A stretch of DNA of 64,000 bases, from the NCBI GenBank assembly GCA_017429765.1, contig JAFROJ010000074.1:6649-70648 (forward strand), given 5' to 3'. Under the pieces are notes generated by a model that saw only the letters and a program-made list of their open reading frames with translations, did no database searches and was not told the DNA's origin. Below are positions 1,094 to 39,783 of the stretch, piece by piece; positions within the stretch are counted from its first letter, which is position 1; the number at the start of each line of letters is the position of its first letter. Made by a program: the position numbers and the translations under genes. This DNA is from Bacteroidales bacterium. GTDB taxonomy: Bacteria; Bacteroidota; Bacteroidia; Bacteroidales; UBA932.

Positions 1094-2362
1094 ATGAGAA
1101 TATTTGTTGAACCAGACAAACGGCAATGGAAGTACCTGTCCAGTCGTGTGACACGGGAGGACTCCATGCTGGAGTGGCGTGTCTCCACTATTCTCGAGAG
1201 AATCAAGAAGGGAGGCGACACCGCTTTGAAAGAGGTGATCAATGAGGTGGAAAGCTTCCTCCCCACGGAGTTGAAGGTCTCTGAGACTGAGTTCGAGACC
1301 GCCAGAAGGAAAGTGCCTGAGGATCTGAAGGAGGCCATCAACGCCGCCGGGAGACTCGACGCTTTCCATCGGCTGGAGGTCCCCGGGGAGGTGGAGTGGA
1401 CCGACCAAATAGGCGTGACCTGCCGTCGCCGCTTCCTTCCTGTGAGGAGGGTTGGGTTGTATATTCCCGAAGGAGCCGCTCCTTTGTTCTCCTTCGTGCT
1501 GATGCTGGGAGTCCCTTCCATGATCGCGGGCTGCCCCGAGAGGGTTATCTGCACCCCTCCGTCCAGTCACGGGACAGTGGATCCGTCCATCCTGTACGCC
1601 GCCTCGGTCTGCGGCATCAAGGACGTTTTCAAGATCGGGGGGGCGCAGGCTATCGCCGCTATGGCCTACGGCACGAATATTATCAGCAAGGTTGACAAGA
1701 TATTCGGCCCCGGCAACAGTATCGTCGCGAAAGCCAATGGAATAGTGAGCAAGGAGGGTGTGGCCGTCGATCTTCCGGCCGGCCCATCCGAGCTGATGGT
1801 GCTTTCGGACGAGAGCGCCAATGTCACTTTCATGGCGGCGGATCTCCTGTCGCGGGCGGAGAACGGGCCGGACAGCCAGGTGGTCCTGCTGTGCGAGAGT
1901 GTCACGACCGCGAGGCGTGTGATCCAGGAGATGGAGACGCTGAAAGGTAAGCTTCCAAGGAAAGACATAGTGGAAGCCGCGTTGGCCGAGAGCAGGATAA
2001 TAGTGTTCGGGAATATCGAGGACAGGATCGCTTTCGCCAACCTTTACGCCCCCGGGCGCCTGATCCTGGCCGTGGAGAACCCCGAGGAAGTGGCGTTGAG
2101 GATAGAGGCGGCCGGAAGCGTTTTCCTTGGGCACTATTCTCCGGACAGCGCCGGAGACTACGTCTGCGGAACCAATCAAATCCTGCCTTCAGGAGGTCAA
2201 GCCACAGCTTGGAGCGGTGTTGGGGTGGAGAGTTTCATGCGAGCCGTCACTTACCAGTCATTGACCAAGGAAGGTTTGGCTTCCCTGTCGGGAACCATCA
2301 TCACGATGGCGGAGGCGGAGATGTCGCAAGCCAGGGCGGAGACGGTGAAAATCAGGTTATAG
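1094..2362 (+). CDS. hisD: Histidinol dehydrogenase homologue with substituted active site (probable pseudoenzyme)
   Basis: HisD motifs GAQAIAAMAYGT, VDKIFGPGN, PAGPSE, GDY are kept. SQAEH->SRAEN, APEHL->APGRL, GTNH->GTNQ, and the C-terminal AH->AR. ATG 1094 preferred over GTG 1067. Confidence 0.9.
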   Translation: MRIFVEPDKRQWKYLSSRVTREDSMLEWRVSTILERIKKGGDTALKEVINEVESFLPTELKVSETEFETARRKVPEDLKEAINAAGRLDAFHRLEVPGEVEWTDQIGVTCRRRFLPVRRVGLYIPEGAAPLFSFVLMLGVPSMIAGCPERVICTPPSSHGTVDPSILYAASVCGIKDVFKIGGAQAIAAMAYGTNIISKVDKIFGPGNSIVAKANGIVSKEGVAVDLPAGPSELMVLSDESANVTFMAADLLSRAENGPDSQVVLLCESVTTARRVIQEMETLKGKLPRKDIVEAALAESRIIVFGNIEDRIAFANLYAPGRLILAVENPEEVALRIEAAGSVFLGHYSPDSAGDYVCGTNQILPSGGQATAWSGVGVESFMRAVTYQSLTKEGLASLSGTIITMAEAEMSQARAETVKIRL

Positions 2363-2426
2363 GAAAAAATTCTTTACTTTCTTGAGAAAAAAAACGACAA
2401 ATAATTGTTCGTATCAAAAGAATTCG

Positions 2427-2434
2427 TATATTTG
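2427..2434 (+). promoter_or_regulatory. Bacteroidota sigma-A -7 box
   Basis: TATATTTG matches TAnnTTTG; TTG at 2405-2407 lies 19 nt upstream. Confidence 0.7.
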
Positions 2435-2438
2435 AGGT

Positions 2439-2510
2439 GAAGTTTTTCATAGTTTAAGTTTAGGTTAAGTAGCGGAGCGATCGCAGTGACTGCGATTGCT
2501 CCGTGTTTTT
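2439..2510 (+). ncRNA. Candidate ~70-nt small RNA
   Basis: Own promoter, an AU-rich unstructured 5' half (GAAGTTTTTCATAGTTTAAGTTTAGGTTAAG), a 14-bp terminal hairpin with U-tail, and no ORF. The 5' end is estimated. Confidence 0.65.
2473..2510 (+). terminator. Intrinsic terminator
   Basis: CGGAGCGATCGCAG-TGA-CTGCGATTGCTCCG followed by TGTTTTT. Confidence 0.85.
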
Positions 2511-2657: not shown

Positions 2658-3755
2658 ATGAAAGCTTTTGTTCGAATTATCAGGGTGGCGTTCATGACGC
2701 TCATGGCCCTTTCCCTGGTCGCTTCCTGCAACAAGATCCCGTCTGACTCAGGCCAGGGGACCCTGCGATGGAGTCTCTCCCCTGACGTCCTGACCAGATC
2801 CCCTCTGGAGCTGCCTGACACTGATTCTTTCAGGCTCAAGGTCGTCAACTCCGCGAATGTGGTACTTTATGAGGGGAGGTACGGGGACTCGCCGGAATCC
2901 ATGCTTGTGAATCCCGGCACTTACACTGTCAGTGTTGTCTCCAGGTTGTTCGAGACCCCGGAGTTCGACGCTCCGCAGTTCGGCGACGAGCAGGTGGTCG
3001 TGGTGCAGGCCGGGTCTGAGACGAGCGCCCGCCTCGAGTGTTCCCAACTCAACTCCGGGCTGCGTCTGAGATTCGACCGGGATTTCGGGGAGACCTATCC
3101 TGGCCGGCTGCTCTTCGTGGACTCGCCGGAAGGCGGCCTGTCCTATTCCCCATCTGAGTCCAGGACCGGTTTCTTCAAGCCAGGCAATGTCTCGATATCG
3201 ATGAGGGACGGCACCGCCACCACTCCCTTGCTGACACGGAATCTCTCCGCCAGGGAGATCCTGACCATAGGGATAACTTGCCCCTCGGGGGGCGGTCAAG
3301 GGACATCCCAGGGAGGCTCGCTTTCAATCAGCGTGGACACCTTGAGGACCTGGACCGAGGAGGAATACCAGATAGGCTCCCAAGGTCAGGGTGAGGCCGG
3401 GACAACCCCCGGGAGGGCCTATGGGGTCTCCCAGGTCAAGGATCACGCCGGAGAGAAAGGGGTCTGGGTCGTGGGCTATATAGTCGGGGGAGACCTGTCC
3501 TCCGGACAGAACGGGATCAAGTTCGAGGGCCCCTTCGAGTCGCTCACTAACATAGCTATAGCGTCCAGGTCCTCGGTGTCTGAGAAAGCCTCCTGCGTCT
3601 CGGTCCAACTGGCGAAGGGGAGCATAAGGGACGAATTGAACCTGGTCCAGAATCCCGGCAACCTTGGCAGGAAGATCTATCTGAAAGGGGACATAGAGGC
3701 GGCGTACTACAGTCTTCCCGGTCTCAAGAACTTGACCGCTTACTCTTTCCAGTGA
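2658..3755 (+). CDS. Lipoprotein, DUF4493-like N-terminus and DUF6359-like C-terminus
   Basis: Lipobox LVASC. C-terminal VWVVGYIVGG...VQLAKGSIRDELNL...GRKIYLKGDIEAAYY resembles DUF6359; assignment from recall. Confidence 0.65.
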   Translation: MKAFVRIIRVAFMTLMALSLVASCNKIPSDSGQGTLRWSLSPDVLTRSPLELPDTDSFRLKVVNSANVVLYEGRYGDSPESMLVNPGTYTVSVVSRLFETPEFDAPQFGDEQVVVVQAGSETSARLECSQLNSGLRLRFDRDFGETYPGRLLFVDSPEGGLSYSPSESRTGFFKPGNVSISMRDGTATTPLLTRNLSAREILTIGITCPSGGGQGTSQGGSLSISVDTLRTWTEEEYQIGSQGQGEAGTTPGRAYGVSQVKDHAGEKGVWVVGYIVGGDLSSGQNGIKFEGPFESLTNIAIASRSSVSEKASCVSVQLAKGSIRDELNLVQNPGNLGRKIYLKGDIEAAYYSLPGLKNLTAYSFQ

Positions 3756-3789: not shown

Positions 3790-4971
3790 ATGAAAAACAT
3801 TCTCATTCTGGCGACTCTCTCTGTCGCCTTCCTATGCCCTTTCCGGGCATATTCCCAAGACAGGCCCCGGGCTGTCGAGCTCGGTCTCGGAGGCTCTGCC
3901 ATCAATCACACGAGGACAGTTGTCTCGAATTTCCACCAGACAGCCAGTGGAAACTATGTGTTCTCGTTGGAGCAGAAACAATTCTATGGCGGAGTCAACC
4001 TGTATTCCGCTTTCGAGCTGAAAGATTGGCTCTATCTCGATTTACAGGGTACTTTCGGATCGGCGACTTATTATGACGCGGGCGAGAGGAAGCGCGGTTT
4101 CTCTTTCATGGCCGGCCCGGGAGTCCAGTTCCGCCCTTTCACATGGAGCGAGTGGGTGAGTCCTTTCCTCCGGCTCGGCGTTAACTACTACCGGAAGAAT
4201 TTCCCCACGTGCTATTTCGGACGCTTCGAGGGGGATGTCACAAAAGAGTCGGAGTGGAGGGCGGAGGACGCCTGGAACAAGGGCTTCACCTTCGACACCC
4301 GCTCCTATGTTCCTTTGACGGCTGGAGTCGGCCTTGTGGGCTGGCTCGGCGACAGGATAGGTGTCAAGATTGAGGGGGACTACATGAGATCCCTCGGCGT
4401 GAAAGGGGCCAATTTCGCGATGGGGACAGCCGGACTCGTGTACCGGATCGGAGGGAAGAGTAAGAGACCCTTGACTGAGCCCGCGAGAGTCGTGGAGAAG
4501 GTCGTGGAGAAAGAGGTTGTGAGAGAGGTCCCTGTCGAGAAAGTCAAGGAGGTCGTCAAGGAGATTGTCAAGGAGGTCCCATTCGAGAAGACCCTTGCCG
4601 AGCTCATGGACAACGTCACCTTTGATTTTGACAAGGCTGACATCACTCCGGGAAGCGAGGCTGTCCTGGACGAGGTCGCCAAGGTGATCCTGATGTTCCC
4701 GGAGAGCAGGTTCCTGATCTGCGGGCACACGGACGCCAAGGGAGACGAAAGGTACAACGAGAGGTTGTCCGAGGCCCGGGCTAAGGCCGTTCGGGACGCT
4801 CTTGTGGAGAGAGGGGTTCCTGAGTCGATGCTATGTCACAGGGGGTTCGGGAAGCGGGCCGCCCTGGTGCCAAGAGACGCGGACGATGAGTTGAGGCGCG
4901 GCGACAGGAAGGTAGTGATTGAGCCCGTGACATGGGAACCTTTGTGGAAATACTTGAAAAACAACGATTAA
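3790..4971 (+). CDS. OmpA family outer membrane protein (beta-barrel plus peptidoglycan-binding domain)
   Basis: Signal peptide, aromatic-rich beta strands, V/E/K-rich linker, and VTFDFDKA...GHTDAKGDERYNERLSEARAKAV. Confidence 0.9.
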   Translation: MKNILILATLSVAFLCPFRAYSQDRPRAVELGLGGSAINHTRTVVSNFHQTASGNYVFSLEQKQFYGGVNLYSAFELKDWLYLDLQGTFGSATYYDAGERKRGFSFMAGPGVQFRPFTWSEWVSPFLRLGVNYYRKNFPTCYFGRFEGDVTKESEWRAEDAWNKGFTFDTRSYVPLTAGVGLVGWLGDRIGVKIEGDYMRSLGVKGANFAMGTAGLVYRIGGKSKRPLTEPARVVEKVVEKEVVREVPVEKVKEVVKEIVKEVPFEKTLAELMDNVTFDFDKADITPGSEAVLDEVAKVILMFPESRFLICGHTDAKGDERYNERLSEARAKAVRDALVERGVPESMLCHRGFGKRAALVPRDADDELRRGDRKVVIEPVTWEPLWKYLKNND

Positions 4972-4982
4972 ACTTTAAACTA

Positions 4983-7697
4983 ATGAAAAACTTCATCAAA
5001 TTGTCAGCGGCCGCGATTCTGGGAGCCGCGGTGGTGTTGTCATGCACAAGGCTGGACGTGACTCTTCCTGAGGGACCGAGGGGAGAGCAGGGAATCCAGG
5101 GTGAGTCGGGAGTCGCGGGGAAGACCGCCTACGAGGTCTGGAAGGAATATATCGCCTCAGGCGATGTCGATGACCCCTCAGGTGACGGAGGGAAATGGGA
5201 TCCTGGCAGGAACACTGTCCATGACTTCTTCACATTCCTGGTCGGGCCGAAAGGCGACGATGGCCAGGACGGCAGGGACGGGAAAGACGGGAAAGACGGC
5301 CGTGACGGTAAGGATGGCCGTGACGGGGAGGACGGCCTGATCCCTTACATCGGCGAGAACGGGAATTGGTTCATCGGGGATGAGGACACGGGAGTCCCGG
5401 CCAGGGGAGACAAAGGTGACAAGGGCGACGGGGGACTGTCCGCCTACGACCTCTGGAAAGAGTCGGTTCTCTCCGAGGAGGGCCTGGTCAATCCCGGGAA
5501 CGGGGTGTACGACCCCGATGAATATCCCTTCTGGCCTGTCGACGCGGTCAGCGAGGCTGATTTCTTCCTCTATCTCCACGGTGTCAAGGGAGATGACGGC
5601 AAGTCCGCCTACGAGCTGTGGAAAGAGTACATATCCTCCGGAGATGTGGAGAATCCGCAGGTCCCCGGGACCATGTGGGATCCTGAGGACAACAGCCTGC
5701 ATGACTATTATGTCTTCCTGACCGGCCCCAAGGGCGATGACGGCCTCATCCCTTACATCGGTGCGAACGGCGACTGGTTCATCGGTGATGTTGACACCGG
5801 AGTCCCGGCCAGGGGACAGGATGGCGCCGATGGCCGGGACGGGACAGACGGTCGTGACGGAACTGACGGTCGTGACGGAACAGACGGGCGTGACGGTCAG
5901 GACGGCAAGGACGGCGCGACCCCCTACATCGGGGCGAACGGCGACTGGTTCATCGGCGATGTGGACACCGGAGTCCCGGCCAAGGGACAGGACGGTGCCG
6001 ACGGAAAAGACGGTTTTGACGGAAAAGACGGCGCTGACGGCGCTGATGGAAAAGACGGCGCGGACGGCAAATCGGCCTATGAGATCTGGAAAGAGGATGT
6101 CCTTTCCGAGTCAGGTCTGGCTAATCCAGGGAACGGAGTCTATGATGTTTCCGAATACCCCAAATGGCCCGCGACGGCGGTCTCACTCGCCGACTTCTGG
6201 CTGTATCTGAGGGGACGGGACGGAGCGGACGGGCAGAACGGCTCGGACGGTACCGCCCACGCCCTCGCCGACACGGCCTATGTCGACAGGGTCGATCCCG
6301 GGATGTACAATGTCTCGCCCGTGATAGCTCTTGGGAAGACCATCGGCGGAACCGTTGAGTATGAATATGTTAACCCTGTCTCAGGAGGCGCGGCCTTCAT
6401 AGTCACCGGCCCGGGTCCTGTGATCATTCCGGATTGCGAGGTAGTGTTCAAGGACATGTCAGGAAGCAAGACCTACACCAAGAGATCCGACTCCCAGGGA
6501 TATGTCTACCTGACAAGGGAGGAGCTTCCTGAGTGGTCCGAGGGACTTCCCAGCGCAAAGGACACTCCCGGGAACCTTTCATCTGGTGTGAGGCCTGTCT
6601 CGTTCAAGTACGGCTCGACCGAGGTCACGGACCAGTCGAGGATCGCCGCCACTTGCAAGGTACCCTATAGAGTGGGTCTTTCCGTGGTGACGGAAAGAGG
6701 CTCGATCTATGACTATGCCGCCCACGCCGCTTTCCGTGTCTACAGGATCGTGGAGGGAGTCACCGAGAGCGAGGCGTTCATCAATTACAGGAATGTGGTC
6801 TCGCATTGGAATTATAACTCATCGTCAAGGGGCTATTGGCCCACCGTCAACTCCGCGTTCAGATATTACCGGAAAGGCGCTGACATCCTTCTCTCCAGGA
6901 TCTCGTCAGGCTATTCTCTTGACTCCGATCTGTCATCGCTGGAGGGGGACGACCTGACCGATTGGTTCTCGGACCTTAACCACATCTGCGGCCAGAAGAA
7001 TTACGACTACGCCATGCAAAGGGCGAAGGTCGCCCGGGCGAGGGTCAGGAACGGGGAGGTGTCCTGGTTCAGGGCCGGGTTCGGTGACGGCCCGGAGCCC
7101 TCGGTCGTGGGTGTGTACGACCTGCTGCTGAGGTATGACGGCGGGGTCGCGGCTTCCGGCGCCGGCGAGCTTCTCCCGGACTACGGCCTGAAGGTCTCCG
7201 ACTCGGCCAGAGAGGTTATGAATCCCCCGTATTACACTATGCCTCAGGGAGTTCAGGGTGAATACGTGTGGGACTCCGGCCACACCAGCCTGACCCTTGG
7301 CCTGTCGGACATCGACGCCTTGAAGTCCGTCACGACCTACTCCGGAGGCGATTGGGACGCGGAGGGCGTCAGGTACAATTTCGAGGCGGGGACTTTCGGG
7401 GAACGTTACAGCAACGGGGCCTCGACCAAATTCACCGTGAGCGGGAAGTACTCCGGCACGACCATCAACAGCACAGTCGGTTTCCCTTTGTACGAGTCCT
7501 TGGACCTGAAGGATGTCTATGACGGGTTCAACCTCTCTGTGGCGGACTTCGTGGACGGGTCGGTGATGCTTGGTGGTTTCTCGGGGAAATTCGCGACGAA
7601 TCTCCCGAATGTTGACTCCGCCTCCGATGCCACCGCGTCTGCTTTCGGCAGCGCCCTTTCTGTCGATGTGAAAAACGTCTCCAATATAGGAGAATAA
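4983..7697 (+). CDS. Large collagen-like repeat surface lipoprotein (904 aa)
   Basis: Lipobox VLSC (Cys21). Eight Gly-X-Y blocks are interleaved with repeated modules AY(E/D)xWKE and PYIGxNGxWFIGD. Start ATG 4983. Confidence 0.85.
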   Translation: MKNFIKLSAAAILGAAVVLSCTRLDVTLPEGPRGEQGIQGESGVAGKTAYEVWKEYIASGDVDDPSGDGGKWDPGRNTVHDFFTFLVGPKGDDGQDGRDGKDGKDGRDGKDGRDGEDGLIPYIGENGNWFIGDEDTGVPARGDKGDKGDGGLSAYDLWKESVLSEEGLVNPGNGVYDPDEYPFWPVDAVSEADFFLYLHGVKGDDGKSAYELWKEYISSGDVENPQVPGTMWDPEDNSLHDYYVFLTGPKGDDGLIPYIGANGDWFIGDVDTGVPARGQDGADGRDGTDGRDGTDGRDGTDGRDGQDGKDGATPYIGANGDWFIGDVDTGVPAKGQDGADGKDGFDGKDGADGADGKDGADGKSAYEIWKEDVLSESGLANPGNGVYDVSEYPKWPATAVSLADFWLYLRGRDGADGQNGSDGTAHALADTAYVDRVDPGMYNVSPVIALGKTIGGTVEYEYVNPVSGGAAFIVTGPGPVIIPDCEVVFKDMSGSKTYTKRSDSQGYVYLTREELPEWSEGLPSAKDTPGNLSSGVRPVSFKYGSTEVTDQSRIAATCKVPYRVGLSVVTERGSIYDYAAHAAFRVYRIVEGVTESEAFINYRNVVSHWNYNSSSRGYWPTVNSAFRYYRKGADILLSRISSGYSLDSDLSSLEGDDLTDWFSDLNHICGQKNYDYAMQRAKVARARVRNGEVSWFRAGFGDGPEPSVVGVYDLLLRYDGGVAASGAGELLPDYGLKVSDSAREVMNPPYYTMPQGVQGEYVWDSGHTSLTLGLSDIDALKSVTTYSGGDWDAEGVRYNFEAGTFGERYSNGASTKFTVSGKYSGTTINSTVGFPLYESLDLKDVYDGFNLSVADFVDGSVMLGGFSGKFATNLPNVDSASDATASAFGSALSVDVKNVSNIGE
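5073..6250 (+). repeat. Intragenic modular repeats: Gly-X-Y tracts plus three knob types
   Basis: PYIGxNGxWFIGDxDTGVPA x3 (near 5340, 5748, 5922), also similar at DNA level. AYExWKEYIxSGDV x2 and AYxxWKExVLSExGLxNPGNGVY x2. Confidence 0.9.
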
Positions 7698-7720: not shown

Positions 7721-8599
7721 ATGAAAAGGACAGCTCGCTTTTTCATGGCGCTTCTTGCCATGACTTTAGGTTGCCAGGAGTCTTCCGGGCAGAGATACAT
7801 CACAACTGACGCTGACAAGGAGGTCGCCGCCCGTATCTTGGCGACGCTTCATGAGAATAAGGACCTCAGCACTCCGGAGCTGATGGTGATCGCGGCCAAG
7901 GATCTGCTCGGCACTCCCTATGTGGCATCCACCCTCGAGGAGGATCCCTTCAATGAGGAGCTCAGGGTGTACCTGACCAAGACAGACTGCATCCTCTTCG
8001 TCGAGACCTGCCTCAATCTGGCCAGGACAGTCAAACAGTCCGCGAATAAGGTTCCCGGTTTCGACGCCTTCGCGGCCAATGTGGCCAAGACCCGCTACAG
8101 GAAGGCTCCTCCTTACACCTATTCGGACAGGATCCATTACACCACGGATTGGCTCCGCCGCCAGGAAGGCTCCCTGGAGGATCTGACCTTGAGCCTGGGA
8201 GGAAAAGAGGACCCTCGCCCGATCAACTTCATGACAAGGCATCCCAAGAGTTACAAGCAACTTGCTGACGCTGACAATATTCCCAGGGCCGCCCTTGACC
8301 TGGGAAGGATAGGCGAGGTGGAGGATGAGTTGAACAAGATCCCGATGACCTATATTCCCAAAGACAGGATAGCCGCGGCCGCCAAGGGGATAAGGTCCGG
8401 AGACATCATCTGCTTCGTCTCATCCGTGGAGGGGCTCGACATAGCCCATGTCGCTATCGCCTATGTCGAGGACGGCAGGGTCGGCTTCATCCACGCGTCA
8501 CAAGCTGACGGAAAGGTTGAAATCGACGGACGGACGATAGAAGAATACGTCAGGCCGCGTTCCAACCTTTCCGGCATCAAGGTCGTCAGACCCTTATAG
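7721..8599 (+). CDS. DUF1460 / NlpC-P60-like N-acetylmuramoyl-L-alanine amidase, probable lipoprotein
   Basis: LLGTPYVASTLE, TDCILFVE (catalytic Cys), LDIAHVAIA and FIHAS motifs. Confidence 0.85.
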   Translation: MKRTARFFMALLAMTLGCQESSGQRYITTDADKEVAARILATLHENKDLSTPELMVIAAKDLLGTPYVASTLEEDPFNEELRVYLTKTDCILFVETCLNLARTVKQSANKVPGFDAFAANVAKTRYRKAPPYTYSDRIHYTTDWLRRQEGSLEDLTLSLGGKEDPRPINFMTRHPKSYKQLADADNIPRAALDLGRIGEVEDELNKIPMTYIPKDRIAAAAKGIRSGDIICFVSSVEGLDIAHVAIAYVEDGRVGFIHASQADGKVEIDGRTIEEYVRPRSNLSGIKVVRPL

Positions 8600-17895: not shown

Positions 17896-17967
17896 TACTG
17901 GGTAGGAGAATCGAACTCCTATTGCAAGATTGAGAATCTTGAGTACTAACCGTTATACGAACCCAGC
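17896..17967 (-). tRNA. tRNA-Glu (anticodon CTC)
   Basis: Cloverleaf: GCTGGGT/ACCCAGT acceptor, CAAGA-TTCTCAA-TCTTG anticodon arm, AGGAG-TTCGATT-CTCCT T arm. CCA is not encoded. Confidence 0.95.
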
Positions 17968-18010: not shown

Positions 18011-18040
18011 AAAAAAAGTCGCGCACAGGCGCGACTTTTT
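18011..18040. terminator. Bidirectional-type terminator after rpmE
   Basis: A7-GTCGCGC-ACAG-GCGCGAC-T5. Confidence 0.8.
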
Positions 18041-18058
18041 CTTTCCGATCCGCGAAGA

Positions 18059-18310
18059 CTATCTCTTGCGGTCCTTGTATCTCTGGTAGAATTTGTCGAC
18101 GCGACCGGCGGTGTCAACGAGCTTGACCTTGCCAGTGTAGAAAGGATGAGAGGTGTTGGAGATCTCAACCTTCACAACCGGGTACTCGACGCCGTCCACC
18201 ATCAGAGTCTCTTTGGTCTCCGCGCAGGAACGGGTGATGAACACGGTTTCGTTTGACATATCCTTGAAAGCTACAAGGCGGTAGGTTTCGGGATGAAGTC
18301 CTTTTTTCAT
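18059..18310 (-). CDS. rpmE2: 50S ribosomal protein L31 type B
   Basis: MKKGLHP..YR.V.F.D, ISNTSHPFYTGK and DTAGRVDKF motifs; ATG at 18310. Confidence 0.96.
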   Translation of the reverse strand: MKKGLHPETYRLVAFKDMSNETVFITRSCAETKETLMVDGVEYPVVKVEISNTSHPFYTGKVKLVDTAGRVDKFYQRYKDRKR

Positions 18311-39282: not shown

Positions 39283-39726
39283 CTATTTCAGATGATTTTT
39301 TCTCCACTCCGAGGGAGTCATCCCGGTCGAGGATTTGAATTGATGGCGGAAGTTGGACTTGTCGCTGATCCCGAGAGACTGGCCGATCTTGCAGGCGGGA
39401 GTCTCCGGGAACTCCAGAAGCATCCTCTTCGCGTCCTCGATCCTGAGCTCTTTCCTCCAGGAGAGGAAACTCATCCCGAAACGCCTGGCGCAGAAGTAGC
39501 TGAGCTCGTCCGAGGTCAGCCCGAGCTCCTCGAGGATCCGGTCCATGGGACCGTAATCGATCCGGTACTTGCCGTCGGACACCCATCTCTCCAGCCTTTT
39601 CCCGACCCTGGCCATTATCTTTCTCCTGATGGCGTCGGCCTCCGCCTTTTTCCGCTTGACCCGGCGGTAACGCCTGATCCTGATTCTCAAGGCGGTGATT
39701 GGAAGTTTTCCTTGGTTTAAGTTCAT
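39283..39726 (-). CDS. Small AraC-family helix-turn-helix protein
   Basis: SFLSWRKELRIEDAK and GISDKSNFRHQFKSSTGMTPSEWR motifs. Confidence 0.85.
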   Translation of the reverse strand: MNLNQGKLPITALRIRIRRYRRVKRKKAEADAIRRKIMARVGKRLERWVSDGKYRIDYGPMDRILEELGLTSDELSYFCARRFGMSFLSWRKELRIEDAKRMLLEFPETPACKIGQSLGISDKSNFRHQFKSSTGMTPSEWRKNHLK

Positions 39727-39775
39727 GTCTTTTACGGTTTTAGTTTAAAAGTATAGCAATTTAGAAAAATTCGTG

Positions 39776-39783
39776 TACTTTTG
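39776..39783 (+). promoter_or_regulatory. -7 box for lysA
   Basis: TACTTTTG, 22 nt upstream of the lysA ATG. Confidence 0.65.

Follow-up and report, generated by a model that had tools for sequence, protein, structure and literature searches.

The window, which is the whole stretch of 64,000 nucleotides that we analyzed, carries near its 5' end a uvrD-like helicase gene, hisD, and an operon that begins with a DUF4493/DUF6359 gene. The region between hisD and this operon very probably contains a real gene for a regulatory RNA of about 72 bases. The features of the locus are:

137–913: uvrD-like helicase gene
1067–2362: hisD, which bounds the intergenic region upstream of the sRNA
2404–2407, + strand: possible −33 element, ATTG (consensus TTTG), 19 nt 5' of the −7 box; read from the sequence and weak by itself
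2427–2434, + strand: −7 promoter box TATATTTG, a motif match to TAnnTTTG (Bacteroidetes primary sigma factor)
2439, + strand: predicted transcription start, the G of GAAGUUUUU, placed at the onset of conservation
2439–2471, + strand: 5' seed region of 33 nt, unpaired in the fold (RNA GAAGUUUUUCAUAGUUUAAGUUUAGGUUAAGUA; DNA GAAGTTTTTCATAGTTTAAGTTTAGGTTAAGTA)
2472–2504, + strand: terminator stem-loop with 15 pairs (9 of them G-C) and a 3-nt loop, followed by GTTTTTAT
2505–2511, + strand: U tract, GUUUUUA; the predicted 3' end is near 2510, for an RNA of about 72 nt
2596–2603, + strand: separate −7 box of the DUF4493 operon, TAGATTCG, with one mismatch to TAnnTTTG
2658–3755, + strand: DUF4493/DUF6359 gene (ATG at 2658), which bounds the intergenic region downstream
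3790–4971: OmpA-family gene
4983–7697: collagen-like gene with collagen repeats (ATG at 4983)
7721–8599: AmiA-like amidase gene

An earlier note on this DNA, made without database searches, had described a promoter, an unstructured stretch, and a strong terminator, with no ORF. The layout held up: the −7 box at 2427–2434 is followed by 33 open nucleotides and then by a 15-bp stem with a U run. The statement about ORFs needs to be narrowed. There is no conserved ORF, but a 32-amino-acid ORF does exist on the minus strand (2450..2352, beginning MKNF). The predicted fold of 2436–2512 has an energy of −29.7 kcal/mol (z = −5.65; 0 of 200 shuffled sequences were as stable), and its 5' part is essentially open. 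TAnnTTTG occurs three times on the + strand of the window, including at 2427–2434; a simple expectation from composition is about nine per strand. Four variable bases separate the box from G2439, and a TTG at the −33 spacing is retained in the alignment of the near clade.

hisD ends at 2362 and there is no other terminator before 2472; the terminator of the sRNA probably also terminates the hisD transcript. On the other side, in each of the 14 near-clade loci the DUF4493 operon has a TAnnTT[TC]G box of its own, about 50 nt 5' of the ATG, so we consider the sRNA and the operon to be separate transcription units. The 5' UTR of the operon can form a hairpin as well (2607–2630 in the window), which is kept in 14 near relatives with some covariation. 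In this hairpin, 84.7% of the cells of the alignment are paired, versus 32–42% when the partner is slid. RNAalifold, if unaided, gave no consensus fold for this 5' UTR; the hairpin is supported only if the structure is supplied.

Relationship to FopS and conservation across Bacteroidales

FopS (RF04319) was described in 2025 as a "family of paralogous sRNAs" from Bacteroidaceae that switches off polysaccharide-utilization loci (PMC11697453). The earlier note had suggested a resemblance to these RNAs. When the whole window was compared to Rfam at the gathering thresholds, the sole match was a tRNA (17896–17967, minus strand, 59.1 bits; beside it, at 18011–18107 on the minus strand, lies a sub-threshold match to Leu_leader, with 29.5 bits and E = 0.047, which is probably due to chance). 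A sensitive scan of 2380–2560 gave RF04319 (BTncRNA_FopS) as the best match, with 2437–2513 aligning to positions 1–71 of the 71 in the model. The score is 32.1 bits, as compared to a gathering cutoff of 56, with E = 0.002 for this targeted search of 181 nt. A blind scan of the whole window with RF04319 found the same match (2437–2513) with E = 0.71, so the match alone would not carry a claim of homology. The seed of the window type is identical to that of FopS at 25 of 31 aligned bases, and it aligns to RF04319 as UUUUUCAU.GU.U.AG..UU.AGGUUAA.

To find related copies, we used a pattern of the 25 bases that are common to the window and to the FopS consensus, AAGTTTTTCATNGTNTNAGN{0,2}TTNAGGTTAA. 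This pattern matched at least 120 stretches of species-representative genomes. Among the listed matches, 8 are copies from Bacteroidaceae or Phocaeicola that are above the Rfam cutoff (65.8–70.6 bits), and the 113 others are of the window type and lie below it. Conversely, a covariance model built from the window type (R1) gave 92.3 bits for the window copy and only weak scores for classical copies (26.3 and 22.1 bits). The suggested resemblance is thus borne out: RF04319 is the best match in Rfam, the full model is covered, and the same pattern retrieves FopS copies that pass the cutoff. From these comparisons of sequences, we take the window RNA to be a homologue of FopS from a divergent branch, and not a member of the family by Rfam's criterion. 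We also considered a second covariance-model match within the window (39702–39783, 19.9 bits) as a possible paralogue, but it lies antisense to the start of a gene and we rejected it. In L076 (5546–5726), a classical FopS copy is preceded, at a distance of about 160 nt, by a tRNA and by a small SRP RNA of Bacteroidales (119 bits).

Across the 121 listed copies, conservation begins at the G that matches 2439, and the preceding four bases are variable. In 73 of these copies, a strict TAnnTTTG ends 3–5 nt (mostly 4) 5' of the conserved G, and 16 more have the box with one mismatch. The spacing from the −7 box to the predicted start in the window copy is the same as in the FopS copies that pass Rfam's cutoff. 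Seed positions 1–31 are invariant in 82 distinct sequences of the primary-sigma type, including 6 positions that the pattern leaves free, although this invariance is partly built in, as the exact pattern was used to select the copies. One locus (L121) was fetched independently of the RNA, via its DUF4493 protein (67% identical), and it has the same base at 33 of 33 positions of the seed, along with a compensated change from G-U to G-C in the stem. Sampling via the DUF4493 protein yielded two metagenome loci, one of them with upstream DNA.

The terminator has been maintained as a structure. Among 90 distinct hairpin sequences, all 13 consensus pairs show compensatory changes, and 95% of the cells are paired, versus 77% in shuffled alignments (0 of 500 reached the observed value) and 33–49% if the partner is slid. 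G-U pairs are frequent in the stem, and the opposite strand would have A-C mismatches in their place, so the molecule under selection is the RNA of the + strand. A T run is present in 107 of the 118 listed copies that are full-length, and the median length, measured from the start through the T run, is 74 nt.

Another 24 of the listed copies belong to a second promoter class, with TGGCA(C/T)-N5-TT(G/T) at a fixed distance of 12–13 nt 5' of the conserved G (L011, L015, L017, L022, L024, L030, L033, L042, L043, L049, L054, L056, L061 at 3561–3634, L062, L066, L080, L087, L089, L091, L095, L108, L111, L116, and L118). This layout is the textbook −24/−12 pattern of sigma-54 promoters. The terminator with a GCAGUGA loop that is found with the primary-sigma type is present in 0 of these 24 copies. 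Two of the loci have tandem RNA genes, 117–150 nt apart: L061 (3561–3634 and 3678–3751) has one copy with each type of promoter, and L066 (4464–4537 and 4314–4386, minus strand) has two −24/−12 copies, the second of which has one change in the seed (GGUUGAG).

The commonest setting of the window-type copies is a uvrD-like helicase gene, then the sRNA, and then the DUF4493 operon. The 3' end of a uvrD-like gene lies about 42–45 nt upstream of 42 listed copies of the primary-sigma type and of 22 of the 24 listed copies of the −24/−12 type. Since both types sit at the slot next to uvrD, they mark one locus in different lineages. In 48 of the 113 listed window-type copies, a DUF4493 gene follows on the same strand after 120–260 nt; other window-type copies retain the RNA without an adjacent DUF4493 gene. 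In the lineage of the window, hisD (1067–2362) lies between uvrD and the sRNA; L067 and L114 have it about 4.4 kb upstream.

Window-type copies outside of the Bacteroidaceae are found in Cryptobacteroides, in genomes labelled as Rikenellaceae, and in unclassified Bacteroidales MAGs, from gut and rumen. Copies also appear in bins assigned to Methanomethylophilaceae, Eggerthellaceae, Coprococcus eutactus, Acutalibacteraceae, and Acetatifactor (L003, L033, L053, L054, L088, and L105). Some of these contigs have DUF4493, OmpA, or uvrD-like neighbors, and we think that they are probably mis-binned Bacteroidales.

The earlier note had mentioned paralogy as a trait of FopS. The window type appears to be single-copy in one closely related organism. 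In run X22, the flanks of the dominant relative have a depth of 192–196x and the common core of the element has a depth of 205–218x, which implies one copy in that genome. The window itself contains one copy. An estimate of many paralogues, from core depths of 500–2000, was withdrawn: this figure was a sum over overlapping unitigs from many species, and the actual depth of the core is 320 in X3 and 205–218 in X22. Five sequencing runs that are labelled as transcriptomic (TRANSCRIPTOMIC PolyA; X7, X10, X13, X15, and X21) were also considered as evidence for the RNA, but their contigs and depths match those of their DNA twins and the contigs extend beyond both ends of the RNA, and we treated them as DNA. 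RNA-labelled and DNA runs from the same samples are nearly equal in size (X6/X7, X9/X10, X12/X13, and X14/X15); side by side, X6 and X7 have identical contigs and depths, so the RNA label looks unreliable. The bovine metatranscriptomes X28–X30 contained no match to the sRNA.

Predicted pairing with start codons

We scanned both strands of the window for duplexes with the seed region (seeded with 7-mers; the energies ignore the accessibility of the target). The three best sites are at −26.5, −24.3, and −23.7 kcal/mol, and all three lie on start codons; the next-best site is at −17.5. Of 300 dinucleotide shuffles, 1% had a best site as low as −26.5, and none had a third-best site as low as −23.7. 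These predicted target sites are:

2627–2668, + strand: 5' UTR and start codon of the DUF4493/DUF6359 gene; −23.7 kcal/mol (third-best), with its core at 2652–2663
4968–4994, + strand: start of the collagen-like gene; −26.5 kcal/mol (best), about 24 pairs with two 1-nt bulges
39702–39730, − strand: start codon and first 9 codons of an AraC-type HTH regulator; −24.3 kcal/mol (second-best)

The AraC-type gene (39726..39283, minus strand) encodes 147 amino acids and matches the Pfam domains HTH_18 and HTH_AraC. The other two sites correspond to complementarities that had been noticed before, and the matches are as they were described. 2445–2456 is the reverse complement of 2652–2663 at 12 of 12 positions, spanning the ATG of the DUF4493 gene at 2658, and 2438–2450 (TGAAGTTTTTCAT) is the reverse complement of 4983–4995, at the start of the collagen-like gene, at 13 of 13 positions. 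T2438 is probably outside of the RNA, as conservation begins at G2439, so the perfect run with the collagen-like gene is 12 nt and not 13. The pairing can indeed be extended to 4968 if two 1-nt bulges are allowed: the minus strand of 4968–4994 aligns to model positions 1–26 with two single-base insertions. These two starts pair much better than the bulk of Met-Lys starts do. Other targets that the earlier note had proposed do not stand out in this way. The 9-nt match at the start of ompA exists (ATGAAAAAC at 3790–3798), but its energy of −15.1 kcal/mol is at the level of a generic Met-Lys-Lys start. Similarly, the ATGAAAAA starts of the susC/susD type are at −15 to −16 kcal/mol, like any Met-Lys-Lys start, so that the pairing with susC starts that is characteristic of FopS is not predicted here.

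We then examined related loci that together comprise 1.67 Mb (counting both strands). These contain 10 sites at ORF starts with energies of −20 kcal/mol or below, as compared to 1.1 ± 1.4 such sites in shuffles, and 0 of 120 shuffles reached 10. (ORF starts in these background sets are rough calls.) Among homologues of the DUF4493 gene with a Met-Lys start (n = 38), the median energy is −16.5 kcal/mol and 50% are at −17 or below. For other Met-Lys starts (n = 96), the median is −12.2 kcal/mol and 5% are at −17 or below, and for other ATGAAAAA starts (n = 23), the median is −13.4 kcal/mol and none are at −17 or below. The difference between the DUF4493 starts and the other Met-Lys starts has p = 3e-6; relative to the other ATGAAAAA starts, p = 0.002.

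The pairing with DUF4493 is absent from many distant relatives (−7 to −10 kcal/mol). Because these distant homologues lack it, the synteny may be historical rather than functional. The long pairing with the collagen-like gene is kept only in the closest relative of the window (L122) and is lost in L081, L114, and L115.

A gene for an AMP-binding acyl-CoA synthetase (protein MLERFL...) lies at 3334–4995 in L034, at 3820–4374 in L078, and near 953 in L055. In these three species, CUAAACUUAAAC lies directly 5' of the ATG, and the predicted energy with the seed is −22 to −25 kcal/mol. Judging from this complementarity, the gene may be a second conserved target.

Proposed role and comparison with known sRNAs

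We propose that 2439 to about 2510 on the + strand probably encodes a trans-acting sRNA that is homologous to FopS, has its own promoter and terminator, and blocks selected start codons. The sRNA would be transcribed from its own primary-sigma promoter (2427–2434) and would end at the intrinsic terminator. Its open 5' 33 nt resemble an antisense copy of the region where translation starts in Bacteroidetes mRNAs (CCUAAACUUAAACU-AUG-AAAAACUUC). Most likely, this seed pairs with the start codon and its flanks in certain mRNAs and prevents the ribosome from binding there. Among the predicted targets, the one that recurs is the DUF4493 lipoprotein gene, which is immediately downstream in most relatives; in the genome of the window, the collagen-like gene of the same operon and the AraC-type regulator are additional predicted targets. 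Repression of translation by the window RNA is suggested by analogy to FopS-10 of Bacteroides thetaiotaomicron (PMC11697453), and an RbpB-like protein might conceivably take part.

We also considered that the RNA might mainly titrate an RRM-type (RbpB-like) protein, with the complementarity to start codons being secondary. All 33 bases of the seed are invariant, which is beyond what a pairing seed would normally need, and RbpB of B. thetaiotaomicron binds the 5' part of each FopS (PMC11697453). However, ORF starts have about 9-fold more strong pairing sites than shuffles do, and FopS-10 represses by pairing in vitro without RbpB (PMC11697453). (The 64-kb window has no RRM signature, but it is too small a stretch to judge from.) Titration as the main role seems unlikely to us.

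We think it quite unlikely that the element is instead a cis-acting leader or attenuator of the DUF4493 gene, in which transcription would start at 2439 and the 5' segment of a read-through RNA would mask the start codon 210 nt downstream. The location of the unit, 120–260 nt upstream of a same-strand DUF4493 gene in 48 of the 113 listed copies, fits this idea, and so does the seed, which is complementary to the DUF4493 start in the window as well as in many relatives. But the operon has its own −7 box in all 14 near-clade loci, and the terminator is strong (15 pairs, −29.7 kcal/mol) with no alternative antiterminator pairing visible. Furthermore, the RNA is also retained at loci where no DUF4493 gene adjoins it, and the characterized relatives in FopS act in trans (PMC11697453).

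Very improbably, there might be no sRNA at all, with the hairpin serving only to terminate the gene before it (hisD in the window and uvrD in other loci) and with the box and the complementarity arising by chance in AT-rich DNA. As mentioned above, no other terminator lies between the end of hisD and 2472, and about nine TAnnTTTG boxes are expected per strand of the window. But a terminator would not explain why 33 invariant bases lie at a fixed distance from a −7 or −24/−12 box in over 100 species, nor would it explain the full-length match to FopS. We give even less credence to the idea that the element is mobile or repetitive DNA, like a MITE or a REP. Metagenome assemblies do break at the element, with contigs that end inside it and continue into many different flanks, but an identical 33-mer that is common to many co-occurring species explains these breaks. 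Most copies lie in one syntenic slot between uvrD and DUF4493, the relative that was sequenced at about 195x has one copy, and there are neither terminal inverted repeats nor target duplications. Also, viral contigs contained 0 matches to the window-type variant, although carriage by phages has been reported for FopS. Finally, there is almost no chance that the minus strand encodes a small protein or preserves what is left of a gene start (ATG at 2450–2448): that strand does resemble a typical leader followed by ATGAAAAAC, and the first four residues of its 32-residue ORF are those of the collagen-like protein, but across 100 related copies the ORF varies from 5 to 92 amino acids (median 17.5) with only the first four codons (MKNF) conserved, the terminator has G-U pairs that are compatible only with the + strand, and there is no promoter box in that orientation within 2451–2657.

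Returning to the trans-acting sRNA, we speculate, with considerable doubt, that the locus represents the ancestral form of FopS: a single-copy gene, present throughout the order at a syntenic locus between a uvrD-like helicase gene and the DUF4493 surface-lipoprotein operon, whose original target was this operon and whose promoter was swapped between primary sigma and a sigma-54-type −24/−12 promoter in different lineages, with the 12–15 scattered copies in Bacteroidaceae that target polysaccharide-utilization loci being a later expansion. If these proposals are true, then the seed and layout of FopS reach into uncultured Bacteroidales of the gut and rumen (Cryptobacteroides/RC9-type, MAGs labelled as Rikenellaceae, and others), and FopS-like RNAs have a second class of targets that are not polysaccharide-utilization loci. 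There would also be an evolutionary origin for a multicopy family of sRNAs, and a natural case of one sRNA gene under two different sigma factors. The branch that includes the window is missed by the current Rfam cutoff for RF04319.

Among better-known sRNAs, RybB, MicA, and OmrA/OmrB of Proteobacteria are also short RNAs with an open 5' seed and a terminator, and they repress the mRNAs of surface proteins near the start codon. They are Hfq-dependent, and their expression depends on sigma-E or OmpR. The window RNA is not known to have any sequence relationship to them. The Qrr sRNAs of Vibrio have sigma-54 promoters, are sometimes present in several copies, are Hfq-dependent, and have quorum-sensing targets. 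This is a parallel to the −24/−12 variants and to the tandems in L061 and L066, rather than to the window copy, and the sequences are not known to be related.

A closer comparison is GibS of Bacteroides, which has its R1 seed in common with FopS; its binding sites are translation start regions, and its promoter is non-canonical (PMC7366714). The sigma-54-like variants of the related loci are similar to GibS in that a non-canonical promoter replaces the primary-sigma one. We considered whether the PM2 promoter of GibS might be the TGGCAC-N5-TTGC sigma-54-like box, but PM2 is described as a near-palindromic −10/−30 motif (PMC7366714), which gives no support to this idea, and we rejected it. GibS also carries a second seed, R2, for which the window RNA has no room. 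The window RNA has one open region only and a TAnnTTTG promoter, and 2380–2560 has no GibS-like match in Rfam.

The closest comparison is to FopS itself. FopS RNAs are about 65–70 nt long, have primary-sigma promoters, and consist of an open 5' seed and then a terminator (PMC11697453). B. thetaiotaomicron has 14 copies and other Bacteroides genomes have 12–15 (PMC11697453). FopS represses the translation of susC by pairing with the start codon and is antagonized by the RRM protein RbpB; specifically, FopS-10 blocks the translation of the susC gene BT_3983 in vitro, as confirmed with compensatory mutations (PMC11697453). The window RNA is similar in its length (about 65–75 nt), in its primary-sigma promoter, with TAnnTTTG directly upstream at the same spacing, in its single-stranded 5' seed, which contains UUUUUCAU...GGUUAA and is antisense to start-codon regions, and in its single terminator hairpin with a GUGA-type loop. 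It differs from FopS at 6 positions of the seed, which is 2 bases shorter, and in its longer terminator stem. Also, the window type occupies one syntenic locus and is apparently single-copy in one relative, instead of having 12–15 scattered copies; its recurrent predicted target is the DUF4493 lipoprotein gene and not susC; and some lineages have a −24/−12 (sigma-54-like) promoter. What is new relative to FopS, then, is a form that scores below the Rfam cutoff, lies outside of the Bacteroidaceae, is syntenic, may be single-copy, and in some lineages has a −24/−12 promoter.
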